Virus record (IMG/VR): IMGVR_UViG_3300018486_000049
Location: 1-39,903 of that record
From: a virus
Lineage: Duplodnaviria; Heunggongvirae; Uroviricota; Caudoviricetes
Direction: 5' to 3' (one strand)
DNA length: 39,903 bases
The stretch's first letter is position 1, and each line of letters opens with the position of its first letter. Shown piece by piece: positions 7,639 to 31,717 of this stretch. A model generated the notes under the pieces. It worked only from the letters and a program-made list of their open reading frames with translations. It did no database searches and was not told the DNA's origin. The translations under genes and the position numbers were made by a program.

Positions 7639-9221
7639 GCAGCCCTCACAATGTAATTAAATGAAATATTACGTGGGCGTGTCTCTGCTGCACCGACAAT
7701 ACTGGTACTCAACCCCGTCGCTGTTCGTTTGTTATTTTTATTTCCTTCAATCAGACAGTTGTAATCATCATTACCAATTAACGAATTAGTGGCATCAATA
7801 CCGTCCGGGGACAAGGCATTAGTTGTAGAACTTAAAGTCAGCATCTCGTCTGAACTTGGAAGATTTTTTAATGGTATTTCATTGCGAGAAATACCCGCGT
7901 AAAAAAAGGACTCATGCCTGTGCGCTTCAAAAGAGTCATCCTGAAGACTTAGCAAGGCACGTCCCGCATCCACACCACGCCCGTCATCCCAGCCACGAAT
8001 AAACTCACCACGTAAATCAGGCAATTTATTTGTCGGATAAGCCTTTGCCAGTTCCGGGTATTCTTCAGCAGAAAAAGCGGCACCGTTGCATTTCAGCCAG
8101 CCTGTTGGCGGAGTGGCGGAAGGCCACGGAACAGGCACGCCAACGGGTAATGCCGAACCTTCTCCCAAACCAAGGTATGTGAGAAGACCAGCTACATCCT
8201 TTCCACTCAAATTGGTAAGCGTATTGTCCAGCGGTTGTTTACCTGCCAGCGCATTAAGCATTGTCGTGGCAAAGTTCGGATCATTCCCCAGTGCCGCCGC
8301 CAGTTCGTTCAGTGTATCCAGTGCAGCAGGTGCAGAACCCACCATTCCTGCAATCGCCGATTTCACAAAAGCCGTAGTGGCAATCTGTGTATTGTTGACC
8401 GACTGCGCCGCCGTGGGGGCTGTTGGCGTTCCGGTGAGTGCCGGACTCGACAACGGTGCTTTTAGTGCCAGCGCATTGTTAATGGTGGTACTGAAATTCG
8501 GATCATTGTTAATGGCTGCGGCTATTTCTTTCAGCGTGTCCAGCGTGGCTGGCGCACCATTAATAAGGGCCGTCAGTGCCGCCTGTACAAACGCAGTGGT
8601 CGCAACCTGCGTGGTATTATTCCCCGCCGCTGGCGTTGGCGCTTTGGGGGTTCCGGTAAATGTCGGGCTGGCTTTTGGCGCGTACTGTGAATGCGGGTCC
8701 GGTGCGGCAAGATGTTTTGCCATCTGATCATCCGCGTAAACCTTCAGCTCCAGTGCCTTGTCATCCACATACTTGCGGGTTGCCAGCACTACAGCAGGGT
8801 CGATTTTCAGGGTGATATTGTCCGTGCTGCTGGTAATCAGCACCATGCGCACGGTCTGAGTGCGCCCGCTACCTTCAGCCAGTTGCGGCTTATAGCTTTC
8901 CGGGCAGTTGCCCACGGCAATCAATGCCCCGGACTCATCAAACAAGCCCACTTCACGTATCCACCAACCGCCCTCGTTTTCAGGGATCACCTGTTCGGCA
9001 ATAATCTGGCTGCTGTTCTGCGGGTCGATATAAAGCATATTCAGCGCAGCCCGGCGTTTCTCATTTACCAGTGCCGTCTGCTTTGCGTCCGGCGTTGGCA
9101 ATACTCCACCGCCATCGCCCACCGCCATATGGGTAATTTTTAGCGGCACACCGAGCGCGGCGGCGCTGGCAAGTTTCGCCGCGCCAATATCCGTCAGCAG
9201 GGTATAAAATTTTGTGCTCAT
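7635..9221 (-). CDS. H: Tail fibre protein gpH (constant N-terminal part plus invertible C-terminal part)
   Basis: 528 aa, Ala/Thr/Asn-rich with an internal tandem repeat; crossover site inside the gene at 8160-8185. Confidence 0.85.
   Translation of the reverse strand: MSTKFYTLLTDIGAAKLASAAALGVPLKITHMAVGDGGGVLPTPDAKQTALVNEKRRAALNMLYIDPQNSSQIIAEQVIPENEGGWWIREVGLFDESGALIAVGNCPESYKPQLAEGSGRTQTVRMVLITSSTDNITLKIDPAVVLATRKYVDDKALELKVYADDQMAKHLAAPDPHSQYAPKASPTFTGTPKAPTPAAGNNTTQVATTAFVQAALTALINGAPATLDTLKEIAAAINNDPNFSTTINNALALKAPLSSPALTGTPTAPTAAQSVNNTQIATTAFVKSAIAGMVGSAPAALDTLNELAAALGNDPNFATTMLNALAGKQPLDNTLTNLSGKDVAGLLTYLGLGEGSALPVGVPVPWPSATPPTGWLKCNGAAFSAEEYPELAKAYPTNKLPDLRGEFIRGWDDGRGVDAGRALLSLQDDSFEAHRHESFFYAGISRNEIPLKNLPSSDEMLTLSSTTNALSPDGIDATNSLIGNDDYNCLIEGNKNNKRTATGLSTSIVGAAETRPRNISFNYIVRAA
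8160..8185. repeat. gix-like inversion crossover site inside the fibre gene
   Basis: TTCTCCCAAACCAAGGTATGTGAGAA; inverted partner of 6237-6260. Confidence 0.6.
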
Positions 9222-19430: not shown

Positions 19431-20470
19431 TGGGAAAGAGTAAGAAAAACCGCGCTGCGGCGACGAATCAGCTCAAGCATAAAAGCCAAACTTCAGCCGA
19501 AGCATTCAGCTTCGGTGATCCCATTCCAGTACTTGACCGCCGCGAACTGCTGGACTATGTGGAATGCGTACAGACGGATCGCTGGTATGAGCCACCCGTA
19601 AGTTTTGACGGACTGGCGCGAACATTCCGCGCCGCCGTTCACCACAGCTCACCGATTGCAGTAAAGTGCAACATTCTGACCAGCACCTATATCCCTCACC
19701 CGCTGCTCAGCCAGCAGGCTTTTTCGCGTTTTGTGCAGGACTATCTGGTATTTGGTAACGCCTACCTGGAGAAACGCACGAACCGATTCGGTGAAGTTAT
19801 CGCCCTTGAGCCTGCGCTGGCAAAATACACCCGACGCGGGTTAGACCTGGATACCTACTGGTTTGTGCAATACGGTATGACAACCCAGCCGTATCAGTTC
19901 ACGAAAGGCAGCATTTTTCATCTAATGGAACCGGATATTAATCAGGAGATCTACGGCCTGCCCGGTTATCTTTCTGCCATTCCGTCTGCCCTGCTCAACG
20001 AGTCCGCCACGCTGTTCCGTCGAAAGTATTACATTAACGGCAGTCATGCAGGCTTCATCATGTACATGACCGATGCCGCGCAAAACCAGGAGGATGTGAA
20101 CAACCTCCGCAATGCGATGAAAAGCGCCAAAGGACCAGGTAACTTCCGCAATCTGTTTATGTACTCGCCTAACGGCAAAAAGGACGGGCTTCAGATCATC
20201 CCGTTGTCAGAAGTCGCGGCGAAGGATGAGTTTCTGAATATCAAGAACGTGAGCCGGGACGACATGATGGCAGCACACCGAGTGCCGCCGCAGATGATGG
20301 GGATTATGCCTAATAATGTAGGGGGGTTTGGGGATGTGGAGAAAGCCAGCCGGGTATTTGTTCGGAATGAACTGATGCCTTTACAAAAACGCATTGCCGA
20401 AATTAATGAATGGTTAGATGAAGAGGTAGTCAAATTTGAATATTATGGCTTAGAAAATAATCAGTCATAA
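19427..20470 (+). CDS. Q: Portal protein gpQ
   Basis: 347 aa, P2 P-Q arrangement reading toward the cos region. Confidence 0.9.
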   Translation: MMGKSKKNRAAATNQLKHKSQTSAEAFSFGDPIPVLDRRELLDYVECVQTDRWYEPPVSFDGLARTFRAAVHHSSPIAVKCNILTSTYIPHPLLSQQAFSRFVQDYLVFGNAYLEKRTNRFGEVIALEPALAKYTRRGLDLDTYWFVQYGMTTQPYQFTKGSIFHLMEPDINQEIYGLPGYLSAIPSALLNESATLFRRKYYINGSHAGFIMYMTDAAQNQEDVNNLRNAMKSAKGPGNFRNLFMYSPNGKKDGLQIIPLSEVAAKDEFLNIKNVSRDDMMAAHRVPPQMMGIMPNNVGGFGDVEKASRVFVRNELMPLQKRIAEINEWLDEEVVKFEYYGLENNQS

Positions 20471-20477
20471 AAAAGAA

Positions 20478-20508
20478 GTGAACAAGTTGAAATTATCAGC
20501 TTGTTCAC
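20478..20508. terminator. Candidate bidirectional hairpin terminator between convergent genes
   Basis: 9 bp stem GTGAACAAG / CTTGTTCAC with 13 nt loop, 8 nt after the Q stop. Confidence 0.45.
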
Positions 20509-20525
20509 TATTCTCTGTATTATCT

Positions 20526-20795
20526 CTACTGCATCCGTCCGGGTAAATCGCTTTCATTGCGTAAACGCCAAGCTAACTGTTCACGATCCCAAACTATATC
20601 GTCTTTGCTAGCCTTTCTAAAATTTGCTAGCACAGTACTGCTTATAGCGTAATTACCATTCTCATTAGTTTTGATGAACTCGTCCCCAAAGTCATTGATT
20701 AGAAATTCAACAACCTCGGACTGATACAACACACCATTAGAACGAGTGGTATTAACCATCCAGTCAACTATTTTTATCAGAGAATCATTCATCAT
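20526..20795 (-). CDS. Hypothetical small protein (about 89 aa)
   Basis: ORF in the AT-rich region between Q and the cos region; start chosen at MMNDS to limit overlap; no motif recognised. Confidence 0.45.
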   Translation of the reverse strand: MMNDSLIKIVDWMVNTTRSNGVLYQSEVVEFLINDFGDEFIKTNENGNYAISSTVLANFRKASKDDIVWDREQLAWRLRNESDLPGRMQ

Positions 20796-20994
20796 CACTC
20801 TCAGCTTTTGGAACAAATAAAACTAGAGTATCTTCATGAAAAACTCCGCGCTGGTTCTTAGCACCAATAAACCACGTACAAACTGCCATTGTAGCCGATT
20901 GGTAGTGATCAATTACCATGATTGGACCATGTCCTGTTGCATGTTTTACTTTCTGGCCCGGTGTATATTTTGCCACTCTCACGTCTCCTTTCAT
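20785..20994 (-). CDS. DUF2158-like small protein (YodC-like pattern)
   Basis: 69 aa with the G..VK...G.GP.MVI....C.WF pattern I associate with DUF2158. Confidence 0.5.
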   Translation of the reverse strand: MKGDVRVAKYTPGQKVKHATGHGPIMVIDHYQSATMAVCTWFIGAKNQRGVFHEDTLVLFVPKAESDDE

Positions 20995-21061
20995 GTGTAA
21001 GTTATCAATTTCAGAATATATCTACATTAATTGCAAGTAAACATGTTTGCGCGCGCTCGTA

Positions 21062-21074
21062 TCCCCGCCACGCC
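21062..21074. other. Candidate cos (cohesive end) site region
   Basis: Reverse complement GGCGTGGCGGGGA resembles the start of the P2/186 cohesive end as I recall it; lies in the non-coding gap between Q-side and A-side genes. Confidence 0.3.
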
Positions 21075-21453
21075 TGCCCGCTTTATGCAGTGGTTTTCAT
21101 GCACATGCATGACATGAGCAAAAGCCCGCCAGTTCTGGCGGATCTGAGCAAAGACGATCCTCAATCGATCATGCGATTTCATGCAGCATAGTCATGCACT
21201 GTCAAGGAAGTGAAAATCCGTATCTGAATGGCCACTTGAAAAACGGATCATACGGGTTTACAAAGATGAATGTTCGCTGTGAACGGGAAGCGGAAGTTAA
21301 CTTTCAGATAACATAATCCATATGCACGAGAACCTCTAAAATAGAATGGGACACCTAAGCGGGGTACTTACAACGATTCTTTCCATATTCACAGTTAACA
21401 CTCTGTTTGGCGTATTTTTATTCAAATAGCAAACACCAATAAAAGGAGTTTCC

Positions 21454-21789
21454 ATGAACAATATTCCCCCTATACCACAGTTAGGAATTTATGTCTCAAA
21501 AATCGATCCCACCCTACGTATCACTGTAACCGATGTTGATATTGTTGATGGTGAGGATGATTCTCCTGATGATGAATTGTTTTATTTAGTCCACTGGATC
21601 GAGGGGGAAGATGAAAGTGATATGACAGCAATGGGATTTGAGCTAGACCCAGTAGAGTGGCAGGCTTTCGTTGAATCTGAGCAATTAGTGTTTGAGCGTG
21701 ATCCGTACATGGATTCAATCCCCGAAAATTCAAACTTGGCAAAGATTCGGGATTTTCTCATGAAGACTAAACAGAATGATCATTCGTAA
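21454..21789 (+). CDS. Hypothetical strongly acidic protein (111 aa)
   Basis: Good ATG with GGAG upstream; Asp/Glu-rich runs (DGEDDSPDDE, EGEDESD); only plus-strand gene in this region. Confidence 0.55.
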   Translation: MNNIPPIPQLGIYVSKIDPTLRITVTDVDIVDGEDDSPDDELFYLVHWIEGEDESDMTAMGFELDPVEWQAFVESEQLVFERDPYMDSIPENSNLAKIRDFLMKTKQNDHS

Positions 21790-21943
21790 GTGTAAGCATC
21801 CATCAGGAAAATGGTTTTGTAAGTGAATCATCAACTTTTAGAGAGTCTCAGACACTCCCACTTCTGCTTCTGACACAAAGCGGACGATCACTTATCAAAA
21901 TAACCGCCCACCTTACGCCTTATTTCACTCATTGCCCAAACTA

Positions 21944-21973
21944 GCCCCCATCAGAATGAATCCTCCTGGGGGC
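21944..21973. terminator. Candidate bidirectional hairpin terminator
   Basis: GC-rich 7 bp stem GCCCCCA / TGGGGGC with 16 nt loop between convergent genes. Confidence 0.4.
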
Positions 21974-21981
21974 AACATTTC

Positions 21982-22215
21982 TTAATGCAGCCAGCTGTCG
22001 TCCTCCCACACCTTCTGCATAATTTTCATCACTTGTTTTCTTTCTTCATCCAGTTGCAGTCCGGTTAGTTCCACACCGTTAGAGCTACCTTTGCGAATGC
22101 GAATTACCGTTTTGGGATACAGGGGGCGCAGATTGCGGTAAAGCTCGGATTCAAGTGCGTCCAAGGTAGACTGGCTAATCTTCTGCTCTTTATCGATCAT
22201 TATTTCAATGCGCAT
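21982..22215 (-). CDS. DinI-like protein (C-terminal, DinI-like part of a Tum-type antirepressor)
   Basis: MRIEIMIDKEQ...VWEDDSWLH resembles DinI as recalled; SD GAGGTGA before the ATG at 22215; the frame is also open upstream to 22287. Confidence 0.7.
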   Translation of the reverse strand: MRIEIMIDKEQKISQSTLDALESELYRNLRPLYPKTVIRIRKGSSNGVELTGLQLDEERKQVMKIMQKVWEDDSWLH

Positions 22216-22225
22216 AAAAGTCACC

Positions 22226-22414
22226 TCAGCTGATGACATCCATTGAGCGGTTGTATTCGTGGCTTCTGATTTTTGCCATGAGTTCATCAGTCAATTCAGA
22301 AACCCACTGCAGAGCCAGCCCCTTCTCTTCATCACTACACTCACTAGCCGCTACAAGCTTAAGAAAAAAATCAATGCGCTGGAGCTTCAAAGACTCCAAA
22401 AAATAGTCCTGCAT
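22226..22414 (-). CDS. Small protein (62 aa), possible N-terminal part of a split Tum-like antirepressor
   Basis: GGAGG SD before the ATG; overlaps the upstream-open DinI frame out of frame; LexA box in its promoter. Confidence 0.5.
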   Translation of the reverse strand: MQDYFLESLKLQRIDFFLKLVAASECSDEEKGLALQWVSELTDELMAKIRSHEYNRSMDVIS

Positions 22415-22456
22415 CTTTCCTCCTATGACACCAAAACAATACTGTATACATAACCA

Positions 22457-22472
22457 CTGTTTATATTTACAG
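22457..22472. promoter_or_regulatory. LexA (SOS) box overlapping the promoter of the Tum-like module
   Basis: CTGTTTATATTTACAG, a perfect CTGT-N8-ACAG with AT-rich spacer, 43 bp upstream of the ATG at 22414; a half-site-like CTGTATACATAACCAC lies just upstream. Confidence 0.65.
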
Positions 22473-22566
22473 TATATAATAATCTTACTGATGTAAAACG
22501 TTTTTTTACGTTCATCGGCCTGATATGCCTGGTATTATTAAGAGCACGAATTGTTAACCCGCGTAA

Positions 22567-24981
22567 TTAATACAGGTTCCGCCACTTATCATCTTCCTTC
22601 AGACGCTGGTTCCGATAGAAGATACGCAGGCCTGCTCCTGACGGAATACTGCCGCCGCGAAGGAGCAAATCGACTTCTTTCTCGCTGCCATCAAATCCCC
22701 TGGACTTCAGTTCATAGACGAGCTGCTGTCGCTGATGGTCTGTAATTCGCTGTTTGTAGTCTTTACGCCGTTTCGGTTTCACCTGGCGTAACCTTGCAGC
22801 CAGTTCCCGGCGCTCTTTTTTGCTCATACTGTGCAGGTAATCGTGCAACTCCTTGTCATTCATACGGGTAATATCCGTTCTGGAGTCCCCATCAGCTGAT
22901 TTGTCTTTCCCTTGTTGGTTCAAATTTTCAGCAAAGGGACAGTTATTGCCACGAGTCCAAGGGGCGCAAGCGCCCTGGTCGGCTACCGCCTCCTGAACGT
23001 CAACGGCCTTACGAACCATTTTCCACTTCACTGCATGAGTGCAGATCTTGCCCTCTGCAATGGGTGACCAGATGCCATAAATACGAATGCCGTGATCGCC
23101 ATAGGCGGTCGGCTCTTCGTTGATTTCATAAGCGGTTCTGATAAGGTGATATTTACGGGGAACCAGTACGCCGCCCTGCTTCATGATGTAGGTGGCAAAA
23201 CAACCAGCATCAGCAGCAGCCAGGATGGCATCAAGGCGCGGGTCATCCAGTATCGGCGCACCTGCTTTTTTGTCACCCTGTTGCCTTGCCGCCTGACCAG
23301 CCAGCAAGCGAAGTTCACGGTAAGCCTGACGTCCCGGAATACCAAAGAAGCGGAACTGCTGAACACGATGCAGAGACGCCCAGGCATTAACGTATTCGGC
23401 GTTATCACGCAGGGATTTACCCGTTTCCTTGCTGATCTCGCCAGCCAGACCACGCCCGTCAATGTTCTTACTGATGTATTTCGCGATGTAGCTTGTCGGT
23501 GTTCCTTTGCGCGGGTTAATCAGCTCAGACTTAAAGCGTGGCCCCGTGTTGTTGCCCAGCTCCTCGCGGTCTACACGGATGGCAAACTTACGCAGTAATG
23601 CAGTGATGGCGCGGCGGTCTTTTTTACGCATGAAGCACATGAGATGCCAGTGCACAGTACCGTCATGGTGCGGCTCAGCCACCCGCACGCCATACCAGCG
23701 CAACCCGGTTTTGTGCATTGCCTTACGAAATGCAGCAAACATGCCGACCAGATAATCGCTACTTTGTCTTACCGTCGCATTTGTCCAGGTCGGGTTGGGT
23801 CTGCCGTTGTTGAGCGTGGAATGGAAACGTGACGGACAGGTGATAGTGTAGAAAACGGCGCAGTCACCGCGCATTTCCGCGATAAGCTCCAGACCTTTAA
23901 CACAGGCCATCATCTCATTGCGGCGATGCGCAGGGTTGCTGCTGCTGGCGTTTACCACATCCTCCATGTCCAGCGTGTCGCCGTCTTCGTTCACCAGTTC
24001 ATGAGAACGGAAAAACTCCAGCGACTTACGGCGCTGCTCACGTTTATGCATCACGGCTTCATAGCTGACATAGGGAGATGCTTTTTTGCTGACCAGGCAG
24101 ACAGCACGCAACTGCTCTTCCCGCCATTCGCAACGCATCTTCCATAATTTCCGATACCACCAGTCGGCGCACAACATACGCGCCAGCGAACCCGGAATGA
24201 GTTCATAGGGCACGGGTTTACGGCGGTTTCTTTTCCGACGGAGTTGCTCAAACGCAGGTGGGATGACATCCAGACGCAGGGTTTCCGCCGCCACCTTTTC
24301 CCATGTCTTGCGGATTTCTTCTGGCTTAACGTCATCGGTGGCATACAAATCGCCACAAGCTGCATCAAGGCACATGCTCATATGCGCAGCTACCAGGGTG
24401 GACAGGCGTTTCACCTGATCCTGACTCATTTCAGGCAGGATCAGCAGGCCCTCCATCCCTTGATGGCTTGCCATAAAACGGAAAGAAGCAGACAGCTGAC
24501 TGTCACGTACACAATCCAGTCGCTCCAGACATGGCTTAATCGTCTCACGCAAATAGCGGGAATAAGCCTTTGGCCTGCCCAGGCTGCTGAAGTATTCGAT
24601 ACGTTGCATCAGCGGCTTGCTAATATGGGTGGGCTGGGCGCTGACGTCCGCCAGAATGACCATGTCCGGGTTAAAACGCTGCTGTTCATGCGCCAGCTTT
24701 GCCCGGCTAATGAGCTTATCCTGCTCCATTTCGCGCTGGACAGGATCACGAGATTCATTAAAGAAATAACGCTCCCAGACCTGCTCACTCAGTGCATCGC
24801 GGCGCAGCTGTTCCTGCTCATTATCGGCAGCGTACAGAGTGATCAGGTTTGAAAGTGCAGACTCCGGCGCAACTTCCGCCGGGTCCAGATAAGGGTTAAT
24901 GGCCTTTTTCGGGCCGTTCCATGAAAATGCTGCAGCGGCCTCGTTAAAGCCGCTAGAGTTGCTCATATCGTCATGACTCAT
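22567..24981 (-). CDS. A: Replication initiation protein gpA (rolling-circle HUH endonuclease family)
   Basis: 804 aa; HWH (HUH-like) motif followed by YIAKYISK tyrosine motif; P2 A position. Confidence 0.9.
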
Positions 24982-27974: not shown

Positions 27975-28916
27975 ATGTCAACTAATAAAATCACATTTCG
28001 CCATATTGAAGATCATCTGAAAGCCATGGTCATGCAGAATCGAGGAGGGCAAAAAGTCATTGAGAGAATACTCATGGCCTATGGTTTCAAATCACGCCAA
28101 GCATTCTGTAACCACCTTGGTATTTCACAAAGTACAATGGCTAACAGATATGCACGCGATACCTTCCCTGCTGATTGGGTTGTTATATGTTCAATGGAAA
28201 CTGGCGCATCAATCGAATGGTTAGCATTTGGTTTAGATGCTGAAGAAGGAGTGCCAGTTCCTTCGCCAGAACGGCATGCTGAAAAACAGTCTGCAGATGA
28301 ATTTTGCAATGAAGTTCACACCCCCACGATAAAGTTCGATAATGAAAACCACATGGATTTCACTCGAGGGGGTAAAGCAGCAATAGAGCGAATTGTTAAG
28401 GCTTACGGTTACAAAACGCGCCAAGCCTTAGCCGATCACCTTGGCATCTCAAAAAGCACATTAGCTACACGATACATGCGAGACATTTTTCCGGCAGACT
28501 GGATCATCCAATGCTGTTTAGAAACAGGAGTGTCTCTCGAGTGGTTATCTTTTGGTAAGGGGCATTCCAATCAAACAAAGCTAAGTGGGTTGCTTACATT
28601 AGACTGCTATGATCTACGTGACGGCAAACTTACTGATCAAAGAGAATTAATCGTTTCGAGCGAAATTTTACCTCAAAATTTAAAACATCCCTATATAGTT
28701 AATTCCGCAAATGATTCATATATCATTAGCAAAGAGGAGTATCTTAGCGATGGTCTATGGTTAGTATCTATTAACGGAGAATTTACTTTTAGAGACATAT
28801 TTAAACTTCCAAACAATCGCATCCGCGTTGAAAACACAAAATATAGCTTTGAATGCGATAAAGAAGATTTGGAATTTAATAATAAAGTTAAAGGAATAAT
28901 TAGAAAAAGGGTTTAA
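27975..28916 (+). CDS. cI: CI-like immunity repressor with tandemly duplicated N-terminal DNA-binding domain
   Basis: 313 aa; residues about 23-85 and 122-184 are an internal repeat (about 60 percent identical, IERI..AYG.K.RQA...HLGIS.ST.A.RY.RD.FPADW...C.ETG.S.EWL.FG); C-terminal domain SDGLWLVSINGEF...; divergent from Apl/Cox. Confidence 0.8.
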   Translation: MSTNKITFRHIEDHLKAMVMQNRGGQKVIERILMAYGFKSRQAFCNHLGISQSTMANRYARDTFPADWVVICSMETGASIEWLAFGLDAEEGVPVPSPERHAEKQSADEFCNEVHTPTIKFDNENHMDFTRGGKAAIERIVKAYGYKTRQALADHLGISKSTLATRYMRDIFPADWIIQCCLETGVSLEWLSFGKGHSNQTKLSGLLTLDCYDLRDGKLTDQRELIVSSEILPQNLKHPYIVNSANDSYIISKEEYLSDGLWLVSINGEFTFRDIFKLPNNRIRVENTKYSFECDKEDLEFNNKVKGIIRKRV

Positions 28917-28918
28917 CA

Positions 28919-29968
28919 ATGAGCTTTACGAAAACTATTGAATTTGCAAACTATACCTTAAATTTTGGAGAGGACAAAGTTCTCTTAGATGCTTTTGATT
29001 GCATTGTTTTTCCTTCATTTTTCGCACAAAAATACGTTAGAAAATTTAAAGATACAGAATATTTCTTTACTGACACAAAAATTATTACGTTAGATACTAC
29101 AGATTCAGATTTTATTGGTCCTATAGTTCCAACAATTGCATTGTGTGGCCGCATTATAAAAAAGACCATATTTAAACGAGATCAAATATTTCAAGATGGT
29201 CAATTAATTCGAGATCACAGGACGCTAGAAAGTCACCCCAGCTCTATTTTTATTCTTATGCTTAATGAGCACAGATTAATGCTTTGCAAAGAGGTTTCTG
29301 GAGCCCCTACCCTAGAAGAATTTGAAAATACTAGCAAGTATTGCCTTGCACAGCGATATAATTCTTTTGTGGATTACGAAGTAAAAAAAAATAAAAGAAT
29401 TAGAAAGAAAAAATCATACATTGATCGACTGTATAAAAAAGATATTTATCGTAAACTAGGAGCCCCCAAATTACGGGTTACCCCCTTAACAGACCCAAGA
29501 TCATTGAGCAATTTTGTTGAACTCTTTTCTGTTGTTAATAGATTATCAATTGAGTTATTACCAACAAATAGTGAAAATATATCTCTTGATGGCTTCTGGA
29601 GGAAATTTGAACAAGAAAAAGAAGAACTTAATAGTAGTAAAGCTCAATTAGTATACACAAATAAAAATGAAGATGGTTTAAATTCTGATGCCGTCATTCA
29701 AAAAACAACAAGTGCAACCCGAATGGCCAACTCTAAAGTAATTATCAGTGGTAAAGATGAACACGGAGCAAGGCTATCAGGGAATAATGATAGTTTTACT
29801 CTAAAAGCATCAAGGCCACAACTTAGTTCTGATTTGGAAAGAGCTGCTCAAGAGGCGTATTCTGCATTCACAGAATTAAAGGATGAAGGAAATATTATTA
29901 TTCCAGAACGTGAAGATTATACTAAAATTTTTTCCAAGTTAACATCAATAATTTCTAGGTGGCTATAG
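28919..29968 (+). CDS. Cargo protein 1 of repressor-linked cassette, function unknown (349 aa, soluble)
   Basis: ATG 2 nt after the repressor stop; AT-rich; basic patch KKNKRIRKKKSYIDRLYKKDIYRK; no catalytic motif recognised. Confidence 0.7.
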   Translation: MSFTKTIEFANYTLNFGEDKVLLDAFDCIVFPSFFAQKYVRKFKDTEYFFTDTKIITLDTTDSDFIGPIVPTIALCGRIIKKTIFKRDQIFQDGQLIRDHRTLESHPSSIFILMLNEHRLMLCKEVSGAPTLEEFENTSKYCLAQRYNSFVDYEVKKNKRIRKKKSYIDRLYKKDIYRKLGAPKLRVTPLTDPRSLSNFVELFSVVNRLSIELLPTNSENISLDGFWRKFEQEKEELNSSKAQLVYTNKNEDGLNSDAVIQKTTSATRMANSKVIISGKDEHGARLSGNNDSFTLKASRPQLSSDLERAAQEAYSAFTELKDEGNIIIPEREDYTKIFSKLTSIISRWL

Positions 29969-29969
29969 T

Positions 29970-30575
29970 ATGAAATATACATTCAACCCAGAAGATCTGA
30001 CCAAAGAGCGATCTTTGCATGATGTTTACAAATTAACTAAAAAAATAAAGGTCAATTCATTTGACTTTTATTTCACATTATTGTTAGTGATATTATTATC
30101 TATTAATGCTTTTTGTCTATCTTCATCACCAGAGTTAATTTCATCTATTAGACAATGGACACCTTTAGTATTCGGATTCACTACAACAACATTAGGTTTT
30201 TTAATTACTGGATTTACAATATTTGCAACCATAAATAAACCTGAACTTTTCCTTTCATTAATGGAGTATAAGCATCCATTATACGGGATAAGTTACTTAA
30301 AATATGTTTATGGTGTATTTATGAGAGTATTTATATATTTCATATTTTGGTCTGTTATCTATCTTTTAGTCCTTCTTTTCGGGCAAGAAAATGGATTGGC
30401 TACAAAATTACTCAGAGCCTTAATGTTTTCTCATTGCACTAAAGTTGTTGGAGTTCAAATACTATATATACTCGTAGGAAGCAGTGCAGTGTTCCTTGTA
30501 TTAACTTTAAAAACTTTCCTGTTCAATATTTATGCTATGTTAATGCAATCTCTACGCTGGGAAGTAGAAAGATAA
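29970..30575 (+). CDS. Cargo protein 2, small multi-pass membrane protein (201 aa)
   Basis: ATG 1 nt after gene 1 stop with AGGTGG SD; about four hydrophobic helices; AT-rich. Confidence 0.7.
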   Translation: MKYTFNPEDLTKERSLHDVYKLTKKIKVNSFDFYFTLLLVILLSINAFCLSSSPELISSIRQWTPLVFGFTTTTLGFLITGFTIFATINKPELFLSLMEYKHPLYGISYLKYVYGVFMRVFIYFIFWSVIYLLVLLFGQENGLATKLLRALMFSHCTKVVGVQILYILVGSSAVFLVLTLKTFLFNIYAMLMQSLRWEVER

Positions 30576-30664: not shown

Positions 30665-31717
30665 ATGGCAGTACGAAAACTCACCACAGGAAAATGGCTA
30701 TGCGAATGTTACCCCGCGGGACGTAGTGGACGTCGTGTGCGTAAACAATTCGCCACCAAAGGTGAAGCTCTGGCTTTTGAGCGTCACACGATGGAAGAAA
30801 CCGAAGCAAAGCCCTGGCTGGGTGAATCAGTGGATCGTCGAACACTGAAAGACGTGGTTGAGCTATGGTTCAAACTACATGGTAAATCTCTGACAGCTGG
30901 GCAGCATGTCTATGACAAATTGCTGTTGATAGTTGACGCTCTGGGCAATCCCCTTGCAACCGATCTCACCTCTAAAATGTTTGCCCACTATCGAGATAAA
31001 CGCCTGACAGGAGAGATCTACTTCAGCGAAAAATGGAAGAAAGGAGCAAGCCCGGTCACCATTAACCTGGAGCAAAGCTATCTTAGTAGTGTTTTTAGCG
31101 AACTATCCCGCCTGGGCGAATGGTCGTATCCGAACCCACTGGAGAACATGCGAAAATTCACCATCGCAGAAAAAGAGATGGCATGGCTTACCCATGAGCA
31201 GATTGTTGAATTACTGGCTGATTGCAAACGTCAGGACCCAATTCTGGCACTGGTAGTTAAGATATGCTTAAGCACAGGCGCACGCTGGCGAGAAGCCGTA
31301 AATCTTACTCGTTCACAGGTGACCAAATACCGAATTACCTTTGTAAGAACGAAGGGGAAGAAAAACAGAAGCATCCCTATCAGTAAAGAGCTTTACGAAG
31401 AGATCATGGCGCTTGATGGGTTCAATTTCTTCACAGACTGCTATTTTCAATTTTTATCCGTGATGGAAAAAACGTCTATCGTGCTCCCTCGCGGTCAACT
31501 CACACACGTTCTGCGCCATACGTTTGCAGCGCACTTCATGATGTCGGGTGGAAACATCTTGGCCTTACAAAAAATTCTCGGACATCACGATATAAAAATG
31601 ACGATGCGTTACGCACATCTGGCACCGGATCATCTGGAAACGGCGCTCCGTTTCAATCCTCTGGCAACGCTGCCAAGTGGCGACAAAGTGGCGGCAGCGG
31701 TTGGCATTACCCCGTAA
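30665..31717 (+). CDS. int: Tyrosine integrase (P2/186 Int family)
   Basis: 350 aa with C-terminal catalytic signature LRHTFAAH...GHHDIKMTMRYAHL. Confidence 0.9.
   Translation: MAVRKLTTGKWLCECYPAGRSGRRVRKQFATKGEALAFERHTMEETEAKPWLGESVDRRTLKDVVELWFKLHGKSLTAGQHVYDKLLLIVDALGNPLATDLTSKMFAHYRDKRLTGEIYFSEKWKKGASPVTINLEQSYLSSVFSELSRLGEWSYPNPLENMRKFTIAEKEMAWLTHEQIVELLADCKRQDPILALVVKICLSTGARWREAVNLTRSQVTKYRITFVRTKGKKNRSIPISKELYEEIMALDGFNFFTDCYFQFLSVMEKTSIVLPRGQLTHVLRHTFAAHFMMSGGNILALQKILGHHDIKMTMRYAHLAPDHLETALRFNPLATLPSGDKVAAAVGITP

Follow-up and report, generated by a model that had tools for sequence, protein, structure and literature searches.

The window analysed here is a stretch of 39,903 nucleotides of DNA from a virus of the Caudoviricetes (positions 1 to 39,903 of IMG/VR record IMGVR_UViG_3300018486_000049), which carries a P2/186-like prophage. 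Between its cos site and replication gene A (gpA, 22567-24981, minus strand) lies one credible plus-strand gene, which points toward gpA and belongs to the family DUF8087 (Table 1). The open reading frame has an ATG start and 111 codons, and the sequence AAGGAG ends 5 nt ahead of the start codon; the frame is real and looks expressed, its ribosome-binding site being a good one. The product contains 15 Asp and 11 Glu (26 residues, or 23%) and 7 Lys and Arg taken together. The other plus-strand frames between cos and gpA are only 40-64 aa long and either run antisense to annotated genes or lie in non-coding DNA. The GC content is 0.40-0.43 over positions 20501-22500, against 0.53-0.61 for the structural genes. 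A preliminary description, made from the letters of this DNA, had reported an Asp/Glu-rich protein of 111 aa as the only plus-strand gene of an AT-rich region between a putative cos site and gene A; composition, uniqueness and base content all agree with what we find.

Table 1. Coordinates of the features at the DUF8087 locus of the window.
Feature	Position	Strand	Description or basis
DUF8087 / PHROG 17127 gene	21454..21789	+	111 aa, pI 4.05, net charge -19; predicted SH3-like beta-barrel and C-terminal helix
Leader, 55 nt, nearly invariant	21399..21453	+	Contains Shine-Dalgarno AAGGAG (21443-21448); alignment of 8 cassettes
Candidate shared terminator, GC-rich hairpin	21944..21973		Between the convergent DUF8087 and DinI-like genes; inverted repeat I5
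Mobile DUF8087 cassette, ~550 bp	21283..21825	+	Same edges in unrelated islands and phages, 83-90% nucleotide identity
Decayed 5' stub of tyrosine-integrase gene (MIIRKCKHPSGKWFCK, then stop), 16-codon ORF	21776..21826	+	Overlaps the DUF8087 stop codon
Probable decayed 3' remnant of upstream Flk_N-like gene, hydrophobic tail (...HLSGVLTTILSIFTVNTLFGVFLFK, then stop)	21355..21430	+	Syntenic position
cos cohesive-end 19-mer, reverse complement GGCGTGGCGGGGATACGAG	21056..21074	-	Alignment with annotated cosL of P2 and cos of 186
Insert, 771 bp, in old/tin-type cargo slot on the gpA side of cos	21201..21971	+	Comparison with 'empty-site' relatives

The leader is almost unchanged across the 8 aligned cassettes, although dS in the reading frame itself is about 0.3. 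A sigma-70 scan of 20900-22600 found no consensus promoter, and an Rfam scan of 20400-22600 found no match to an RNA family. A promoter candidate picked by hand (TTCACA, 19 nt, TATTTT; 21388/21413) was rejected: its spacer is poor and its -35 element, the only candidate for one, is deleted in one of the cassettes (L043). Downstream of the gene, the GC-rich hairpin folds at -15.7 kcal/mol (z = -2.1) and has no strong U-tract; it is possibly a terminator shared by the DUF8087 and DinI-like genes, an assignment that we make tentatively.

The 19-mer GGCGTGGCGGGGATACGAG can be aligned to the 19-nt cohesive ends annotated in P2 (GGCGAGGCGGGGAAAGCAC) and 186 (GGCGTGGCGGGGAAAGCAT); its first 13 nt are the same as in 186, and a shared GCGCGC then follows. 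The cos site, putative in the preliminary description, is thereby borne out, and by this alignment the mature genome has its right end here, on the side of DUF8087. With a genuine cos at this position, the DUF8087 gene starts 380 bp inside that end. In the P2 reference record the old-tin mRNA begins about 150 nt from cosR and runs toward gene A, and both genes are annotated as lysogenic-conversion genes. Slot and orientation in the window agree with this record, as had been supposed: transcription runs from the cos side toward A, through AT-rich DNA whose content varies between related phages. The protein itself is unlike those of P2, since it has no homology to Old (an ATPase/nuclease) or Tin and is a single product of 111 aa without enzymatic domains. 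Phage vB_EcoM-813R9 and Fels-2 share with the window only 21047-21200 and 21972-22600; at the position of the insert vB_EcoM-813R9 has 68 bp and Fels-2 a different gene, of 243 aa.

No Flk_N-like gene (see below) or other co-directional partner was found at the window locus, which is bounded by cos and by a convergent DinI-like operon. A sequence in perfect agreement with the LexA-box consensus (CTGT-N8-ACAG) stands at 22457-22472 with an adjoining imperfect half-palindrome (inverted repeat I1; region 22440-22475), upstream of a minus-strand frame of 62 aa (22226-22414, phrog_698) and the DinI-like gene (21982-22215/22287). The arrangement looks like the SOS-controlled tum-type operon of phage 186.

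Across 28 E. coli loci the cassette stays the same, and beyond cos, toward gpQ, the cargo takes at least 17 different forms, among them retrons, ATPases, and SIR2-like and TIR-like proteins; in this constancy it differs from the swapped gpQ-side cargo of the P2 hotspot. In the window the space between portal gene Q and cos (20526-20994, minus strand) holds two small overlapping genes, one for a DUF6953 protein (96 aa, E = 6e-24) and one for a DUF2158-like protein (69 aa, a sub-threshold match), and neither matched PADLOC. Retron Ec86 fills exactly this position in BL21. A functional link between DUF8087 and this retron was considered and dropped, because the cassette is found with 17 or more unrelated cargos and there is no retron in the window. 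The gpQ-gpA interval is a documented defence hotspot, in which more than one third of the cloned systems were active (PMC9122126). In Table S5A of that study (Rousset et al. 2022) the E. coli version of the protein, WP_001059831.1, appears about 50 times, only as an accompanying 'hypothetical' in this hotspot, and its gene lies outside the systems that were cloned and tested (PMC9122126).

The preliminary description had called the protein an orphan and recognised no family. Both statements are overturned: phrog_17127 covers the entire window protein (E = 2e-70, positions 1-111 of 111), and in a search of 5.8 billion proteins all 61 of the 61 homologue clusters, all from Enterobacterales, carry the label PF26332 (DUF8087), a label that rests on precomputed annotation and whose model our local Pfam copy does not report. 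Pfam and NCBIfam scans of the window protein gave no match, and a PADLOC scan returned 0 families at E <= 1. With the core residues P8, G11, Y13 and W69 and the motif E.D..DM.A.G.ELD..EW it is an ordinary member, without difference from the rest of a family that has no assigned function. Among 5,426 complete E. coli genomes 132 carry the gene. BL21(DE3) and REL606 are two of them, and there the product (WP_001059831.1, locus tag ECD_RS04420) is annotated as 'hypothetical protein'; over this locus BL21(DE3), REL606 and E. coli C have exactly the DNA sequence of the window (100% identity). A profile search of 1.84 billion representative proteins yielded only 35 matches, including relatives of 68-132 aa that share residues 1-80; tblastn against INPHARED found the gene in 0 of 50,697 deposited phage records, and it occurs in 1 of 72,556 plasmids. 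Within the searches made, the distribution is thus narrow, comprising P2-like prophages and islands of Enterobacterales only. A DUF1292 label attached in UniRef to two divergent members was dropped after Pfam scans recovered it in 0/30 and 0/6 proteins.

Acidity is a property of the whole family: net charge ranges from -8 to -22 and pI from 4.05 to 4.53 in all 69 of the sequences examined, the median charge is -0.15 to -0.16 per residue, and the extreme acidity is kept even in relatives at 30-45% identity. One distant member, which has a basic N-terminal extension (MGEAKRRG...), heads a co-directional gene cluster (L060, 4001-8160) that continues with a 444-aa protein (phrog_9592), a Dam-type methyltransferase and a Ser/Thr protein kinase; such a setting resembles neither the operon type nor the orphan type of locus described below.

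An AlphaFold2 model built from a 39-sequence alignment (pLDDT 77.8, pTM 0.63) places strands at residues 11-15, 22-31, 43-50, 61-64 and 78-82 and helices at 66-76 and 94-108, with low pLDDT in the acidic loop 31-42. As predicted, the fold would be a five-stranded SH3-like beta-barrel with acidic loops. P8, G11 and W69 are invariant throughout the superfamily and the segment E.D..DM.A.G.ELD..EW is conserved. The acidic loop between beta2 and beta3 varies from 0 to 10 residues across the superfamily, and some distant relatives do without it; function may therefore depend on more than charge. The pattern of conservation suggests a specific protein-protein interface within the acidic surface rather than a purely generic DNA-like array of charges. 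The model has no structural match to any solved DNA mimic, and a profile search of PDB chains with DUF8087 gave zero matches at E <= 10. Small beta-barrels of the DUF1653, FeoA and Tudor types scored in the range expected for any SH3-like barrel and show no relationship at the sequence level (the Pfam scans being negative).

In divergent members of the family the gene stands in a different setting: a CI-type HTH repressor is followed by a Flk_N-like protein, DUF8087 and a tyrosine integrase. This order is found in at least 8 divergent sequence types, comprising Klebsiella aerogenes, K. variicola, E. coli (for instance GCA_040141365.1) and metagenomic contigs, whose DUF8087 proteins are 30-77% identical to that of the window. 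Intergenic gaps in the operon are 9-25 nt, the Flk_N/DUF8087 pair is strictly conserved (10-25 nt apart), and in most of these loci the DUF8087 stop overlaps the int start. More distant members likewise adjoin integrase genes or fragments at prophage edges. The Flk_N-like protein (about 210 aa, with a Flk_N domain and a C-terminal membrane anchor) belongs to phrog_5825 (function unknown) and gave no significant match to a Pfam family in our scan; it is weakly similar to Ant anti-repressors (phrog_245, E = 7e-7).

An NRxAGRD[FY]xE motif is common to the N-terminus of the Flk_N-like protein and the C-terminus of CI in 7/7 operon loci checked. In its wider form, [NH]R.[AS]GRD[FY].E, it occurs twice per locus (L008, L047, L048, L050, L052, L054 and L058): the first copy is the extreme C-terminus of CI and the second lies near the N-terminus of the Flk_N-like protein. 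It could be a shared binding or degradation signal, and together with the Ant-like similarity it hints at a regulatory network of protein-protein contacts. In the window prophage we found neither a Flk_N gene nor the NRxAGRD motif, and the DUF8087 protein must therefore work there without its ancestral neighbour.

The lysogeny region of the window has peculiarities of its own. Its CI frame (27975-28916, 313 aa) has two separate matches to the Phage_CI_repr HTH domain, and tblastn with the CI of BL21 also matches the window twice (28041-28232 and 28353-28913); the repressor may carry a tandem duplication or fusion of its N-terminal domain, or its start may be mis-called. The interval between cI and int (28919-30575) contains two co-directional frames of 349 and 201 aa at a GC content of 30-33%, both without a match in Pfam or PADLOC. 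This interval may be a second cargo slot, the one that in the other P2-like lineage is the native slot of DUF8087.

The DNA around the window gene shows where it came from. The integrase stub matches the N-termini of the integrases that overlap DUF8087 in operon-type loci (VTVRKLPSGKWLCQC... in L009), as well as the 71-aa stubs of island loci. On the other side, nucleotide homology between the window and an operon-type locus (L047) begins inside the 3' end of the Flk_N gene of the latter. At the protein level the match of this remnant is weak in the window (E about 1.6) and clearer in a related locus (L046, E = 0.004), and we tentatively regard it as the probable remainder of a gene for a Flk_N-like membrane protein. 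Comparison of these sequences indicates that the window acquired its copy secondarily, as a piece of some 550 bp from the repressor-integrase operon of related P2-like prophages. Only DUF8087 stayed intact after the capture; the flanking int and Flk_N fragments are broken by stop codons. A longer form exists in three E. coli prophages (L039-L041), where DUF8087 is followed by the 71-aa int stub, a 127-aa protein and a GNAT acetyltransferase, and the window form is derived from it by deletion. At the left edge of the cassette a GCGGAA hexanucleotide is present in about seven copies in these prophages (L039, ~7800-7850) and about two in the window (21276-21290); the expansion yields a spurious '(SA)n' frame on the opposite strand.

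The cassette recurs in islands that are not P2-like, in Morganella, Serratia, Symbiopectobacterium, Lonsdalea and Proteus, and also in another phage type and viral loci. In Morganella a full-length Mokosh type II gene (MkoC, PADLOC E = 0) precedes the DUF8087 gene by 250 bp. The Mokosh gene is directly upstream of the cassette at the edge of the island (L004, 2242-5751), which also carries genes for ArdB-type Antirestrict, DUF932 and IrmA. Residence in the hotspot and the Mokosh type II neighbour fit a role in defence and one in anti-defence equally.

Retention of the gene is matched by the pattern of its substitutions. The frame is intact in 15/15 orthologues compared (at least 6 genera, three types of context), and dN/dS is 0.10-0.22 against the window copy, with a median of 0.14 over all pairs (dS 0.15 to >1). 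By these ratios the gene is under purifying selection and is more than a chance reading frame. One gene that is kept intact and spread over at least 6 genera under such selection implies that the protein is beneficial on its own, and we conclude that DUF8087 is a selected, stand-alone accessory gene of this P2/186-like prophage.

As to what the protein does, a precedent is offered by CarS of Myxococcus xanthus, an acidic (pI 4.1) antirepressor of SH3 topology that mimics operator DNA and grips the recognition helix of a repressor in an acid-lined pocket (PMC2926617). Both proteins are small, with a pI of about 4.1; the five-stranded SH3-like fold of CarS, with acidic residues concentrated in loops, may be shared by DUF8087 if its predicted structure is right, and the ancestral context of DUF8087 is a repressor operon. 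Taxon and biology differ, and the PDB profile search (E <= 10, with the CarS1 NMR structure assumed to be deposited) found no sequence similarity; the likeness is one of mechanism by analogy, not of homology or membership. By that analogy DUF8087 might be a prophage-expressed acidic decoy that sequesters a basic DNA-binding protein, which is the reading we infer and prefer, though we hold it with less than even confidence. Its original place is the lysogeny operon of a related P2-like lineage, between the tail-anchored Flk_N-like protein downstream of CI and the integrase. Its position in that operon implies co-transcription with the repressor, and this structure and the analogy with P2 old and tin suggest that it would be made in lysogens. 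The fragment of about 550 bp was later captured, both into the old/tin slot beside cos and into further islands. With its conserved acidic surface and the ELDxxEW segment the protein would bind and sequester the basic, nucleic-acid-binding surface of another protein, as a decoy or inhibitor of the CarS type that is deployed when mobile elements compete. Its target could be a DNA-binding protein of a related or superinfecting phage, for instance a repressor or an anti-repressor, and the effect might be exclusion, anti-immunity or anti-defence.

The preliminary description had instead pointed to a DNA mimic or an anti-defence factor, on the ground that small acidic proteins at early-entering genome ends are often of these kinds. 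Mimicry or sequestration as such remains viable, in view of the family-wide acidity and the CarS precedent; the more specific case for an Ocr/ArdA-like anti-defence factor at an early-entering end is not supported. The ancestral and still widespread home of the gene is the CI-Int lysogeny operon rather than an early-expressed leading region, and the window copy, with its integrase stub, is a secondary capture. In P2 this position is occupied by old and tin, which are expressed from the prophage and serve exclusion, not anti-defence. An anti-restriction protein of the Ocr/ArdA type, or another anti-defence protein (possibly an anti-CRISPR) that shields the phage or prophage genome, would account for the very high and conserved charge density (net -19 in 111 aa), the small size without an enzymatic domain, and the carriage in accessory regions of mobile elements, with an ArdB-type Antirestrict gene at a distance of about 4 kb in one island. 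A place in a lysogeny operon would also suit inhibitors made by the prophage, such as anti-CRISPRs. Against this, ArdA and Ocr are widespread and are elongated helical or mixed dimers, while DUF8087 is narrowly distributed (0/50,697 phage genomes and 1/72,556 plasmids, in contrast to anti-restriction genes with a broad distribution) and is predicted to be a beta-barrel. Structure prediction, to which the preliminary description had looked for a DNA-mimic surface, gave a putative SH3-like barrel that resembles no solved DNA mimic in fold or sequence, and ELDxxEW with the invariant W69 suggests a dedicated partner over a generic DNA-like surface. Anti-defence genes were moreover detected in only 28 of 1,511 P2-like prophages in a large survey (PMC13586616). 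No confident homology to a structural or regulatory phage protein was found. With the rationale unsupported and such homology lacking, the anti-defence idea is weakened but not refuted, and we rate it as unlikely.

Two further readings seem to us rather less probable still, and equally so. In one, the protein is an orphaned neutraliser, of the antitoxin or immunity type, of the Flk_N-like tail-anchored protein, a possible effector of exclusion or abortive infection that DUF8087 would hold in check within the native operon; present alone on the cassette, DUF8087 would shield whatever carries it from the Flk_N systems of rival P2-like phages. The strict conservation of the pair across divergent loci, the placing of a small acidic protein beside a larger membrane-anchored one in a repressor operon (lambda cI-rexA-rexB is an analogous arrangement) and the retention of the small gene alone after capture, under strong purifying selection, would all follow. 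However, the Flk_N-like proteins offer only a match to a group of unknown function and no significant Pfam family, the cassette also occurs in genera and islands without demonstrated Flk_N-carrying phages, the order of a large gene before a small one is not diagnostic, and no adjacent, co-transcribed toxin partner, as in a type II toxin-antitoxin system, was found at the window locus. In the other, DUF8087 is a stand-alone exclusion factor that works as P2 Tin does, by poisoning a DNA-binding protein that superinfecting phages cannot do without. We know of no precedent for an acidic cytosolic protein of 111 aa as the sole effector of a defence, and there is no PADLOC match. The slot and orientation are nevertheless those of P2 old/tin, and the Morganella copy follows a Mokosh type II gene. 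The surrounding interval is the documented hotspot, in which the protein has figured only as an accompanying 'hypothetical' (PMC9122126).

The translational coupling to int, with overlapping stop and start codons in most operon-type loci, and the position of distant members next to integrase genes or fragments at prophage edges could point to an accessory factor of integration or excision, either a directionality factor or a modulator of Int. We consider this very improbable: the captured cassette is selected without a functional integrase beside it, 9 kb from the int of the prophage (30665-31672), and the directionality factors known to us are basic DNA-binding proteins rather than acidic ones. 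Least credible of all is a non-functional remnant that hitch-hiked on illegitimate recombination. The cassette is visibly a fragment between two broken genes, and the promoter scan was empty; but a median dN/dS of 0.14 at dS up to 0.4 and beyond, the 15/15 intact frames and a nearly invariant leader and ribosome-binding site run counter to it, and on these selection data an inert remnant is disfavoured.

Part of this is known already: the family is catalogued, as a Pfam DUF and a PHROG, and the locus is a well-known hotspot. In the searchable literature we found no publication naming DUF8087/PF26332, its PHROG or WP_001059831, and nothing relevant for Flk_N; the evolutionary reconstruction, the conserved CI/Flk_N/DUF8087/Int operon and the autonomous spread of DUF8087 appear to be undescribed there. 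The gene sits in the best-studied prophage defence hotspot of E. coli and in the widely used BL21, REL606 and E. coli C, where it has only ever been 'hypothetical', and its history is unusually legible: a fragment of a lysogeny operon, 550 bp, one intact gene, at least 6 genera. A bolder extension of the decoy reading, which we offer as speculation and think improbable, is that DUF8087 represents an unrecognised class of prophage acidic SH3-fold decoys, which arose in a repressor-integrase operon beside a membrane-tethered Ant-like protein and has repeatedly been co-opted by heteroimmune phages and islands as a trans-acting weapon against the immunity or exclusion of rival P2-like phages or against a host defence protein. 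If there is no phenotype, DUF8087 would be an ordinary uncharacterised moron (an accessory gene carried by a prophage). If it turns out to inhibit a repressor, or an exclusion or defence system, the few acidic mimic proteins known would be joined by a new fold family, and a conserved module of three proteins (CI, Flk_N-like and DUF8087) in the control of lysogeny by P2-like phages would come to light.
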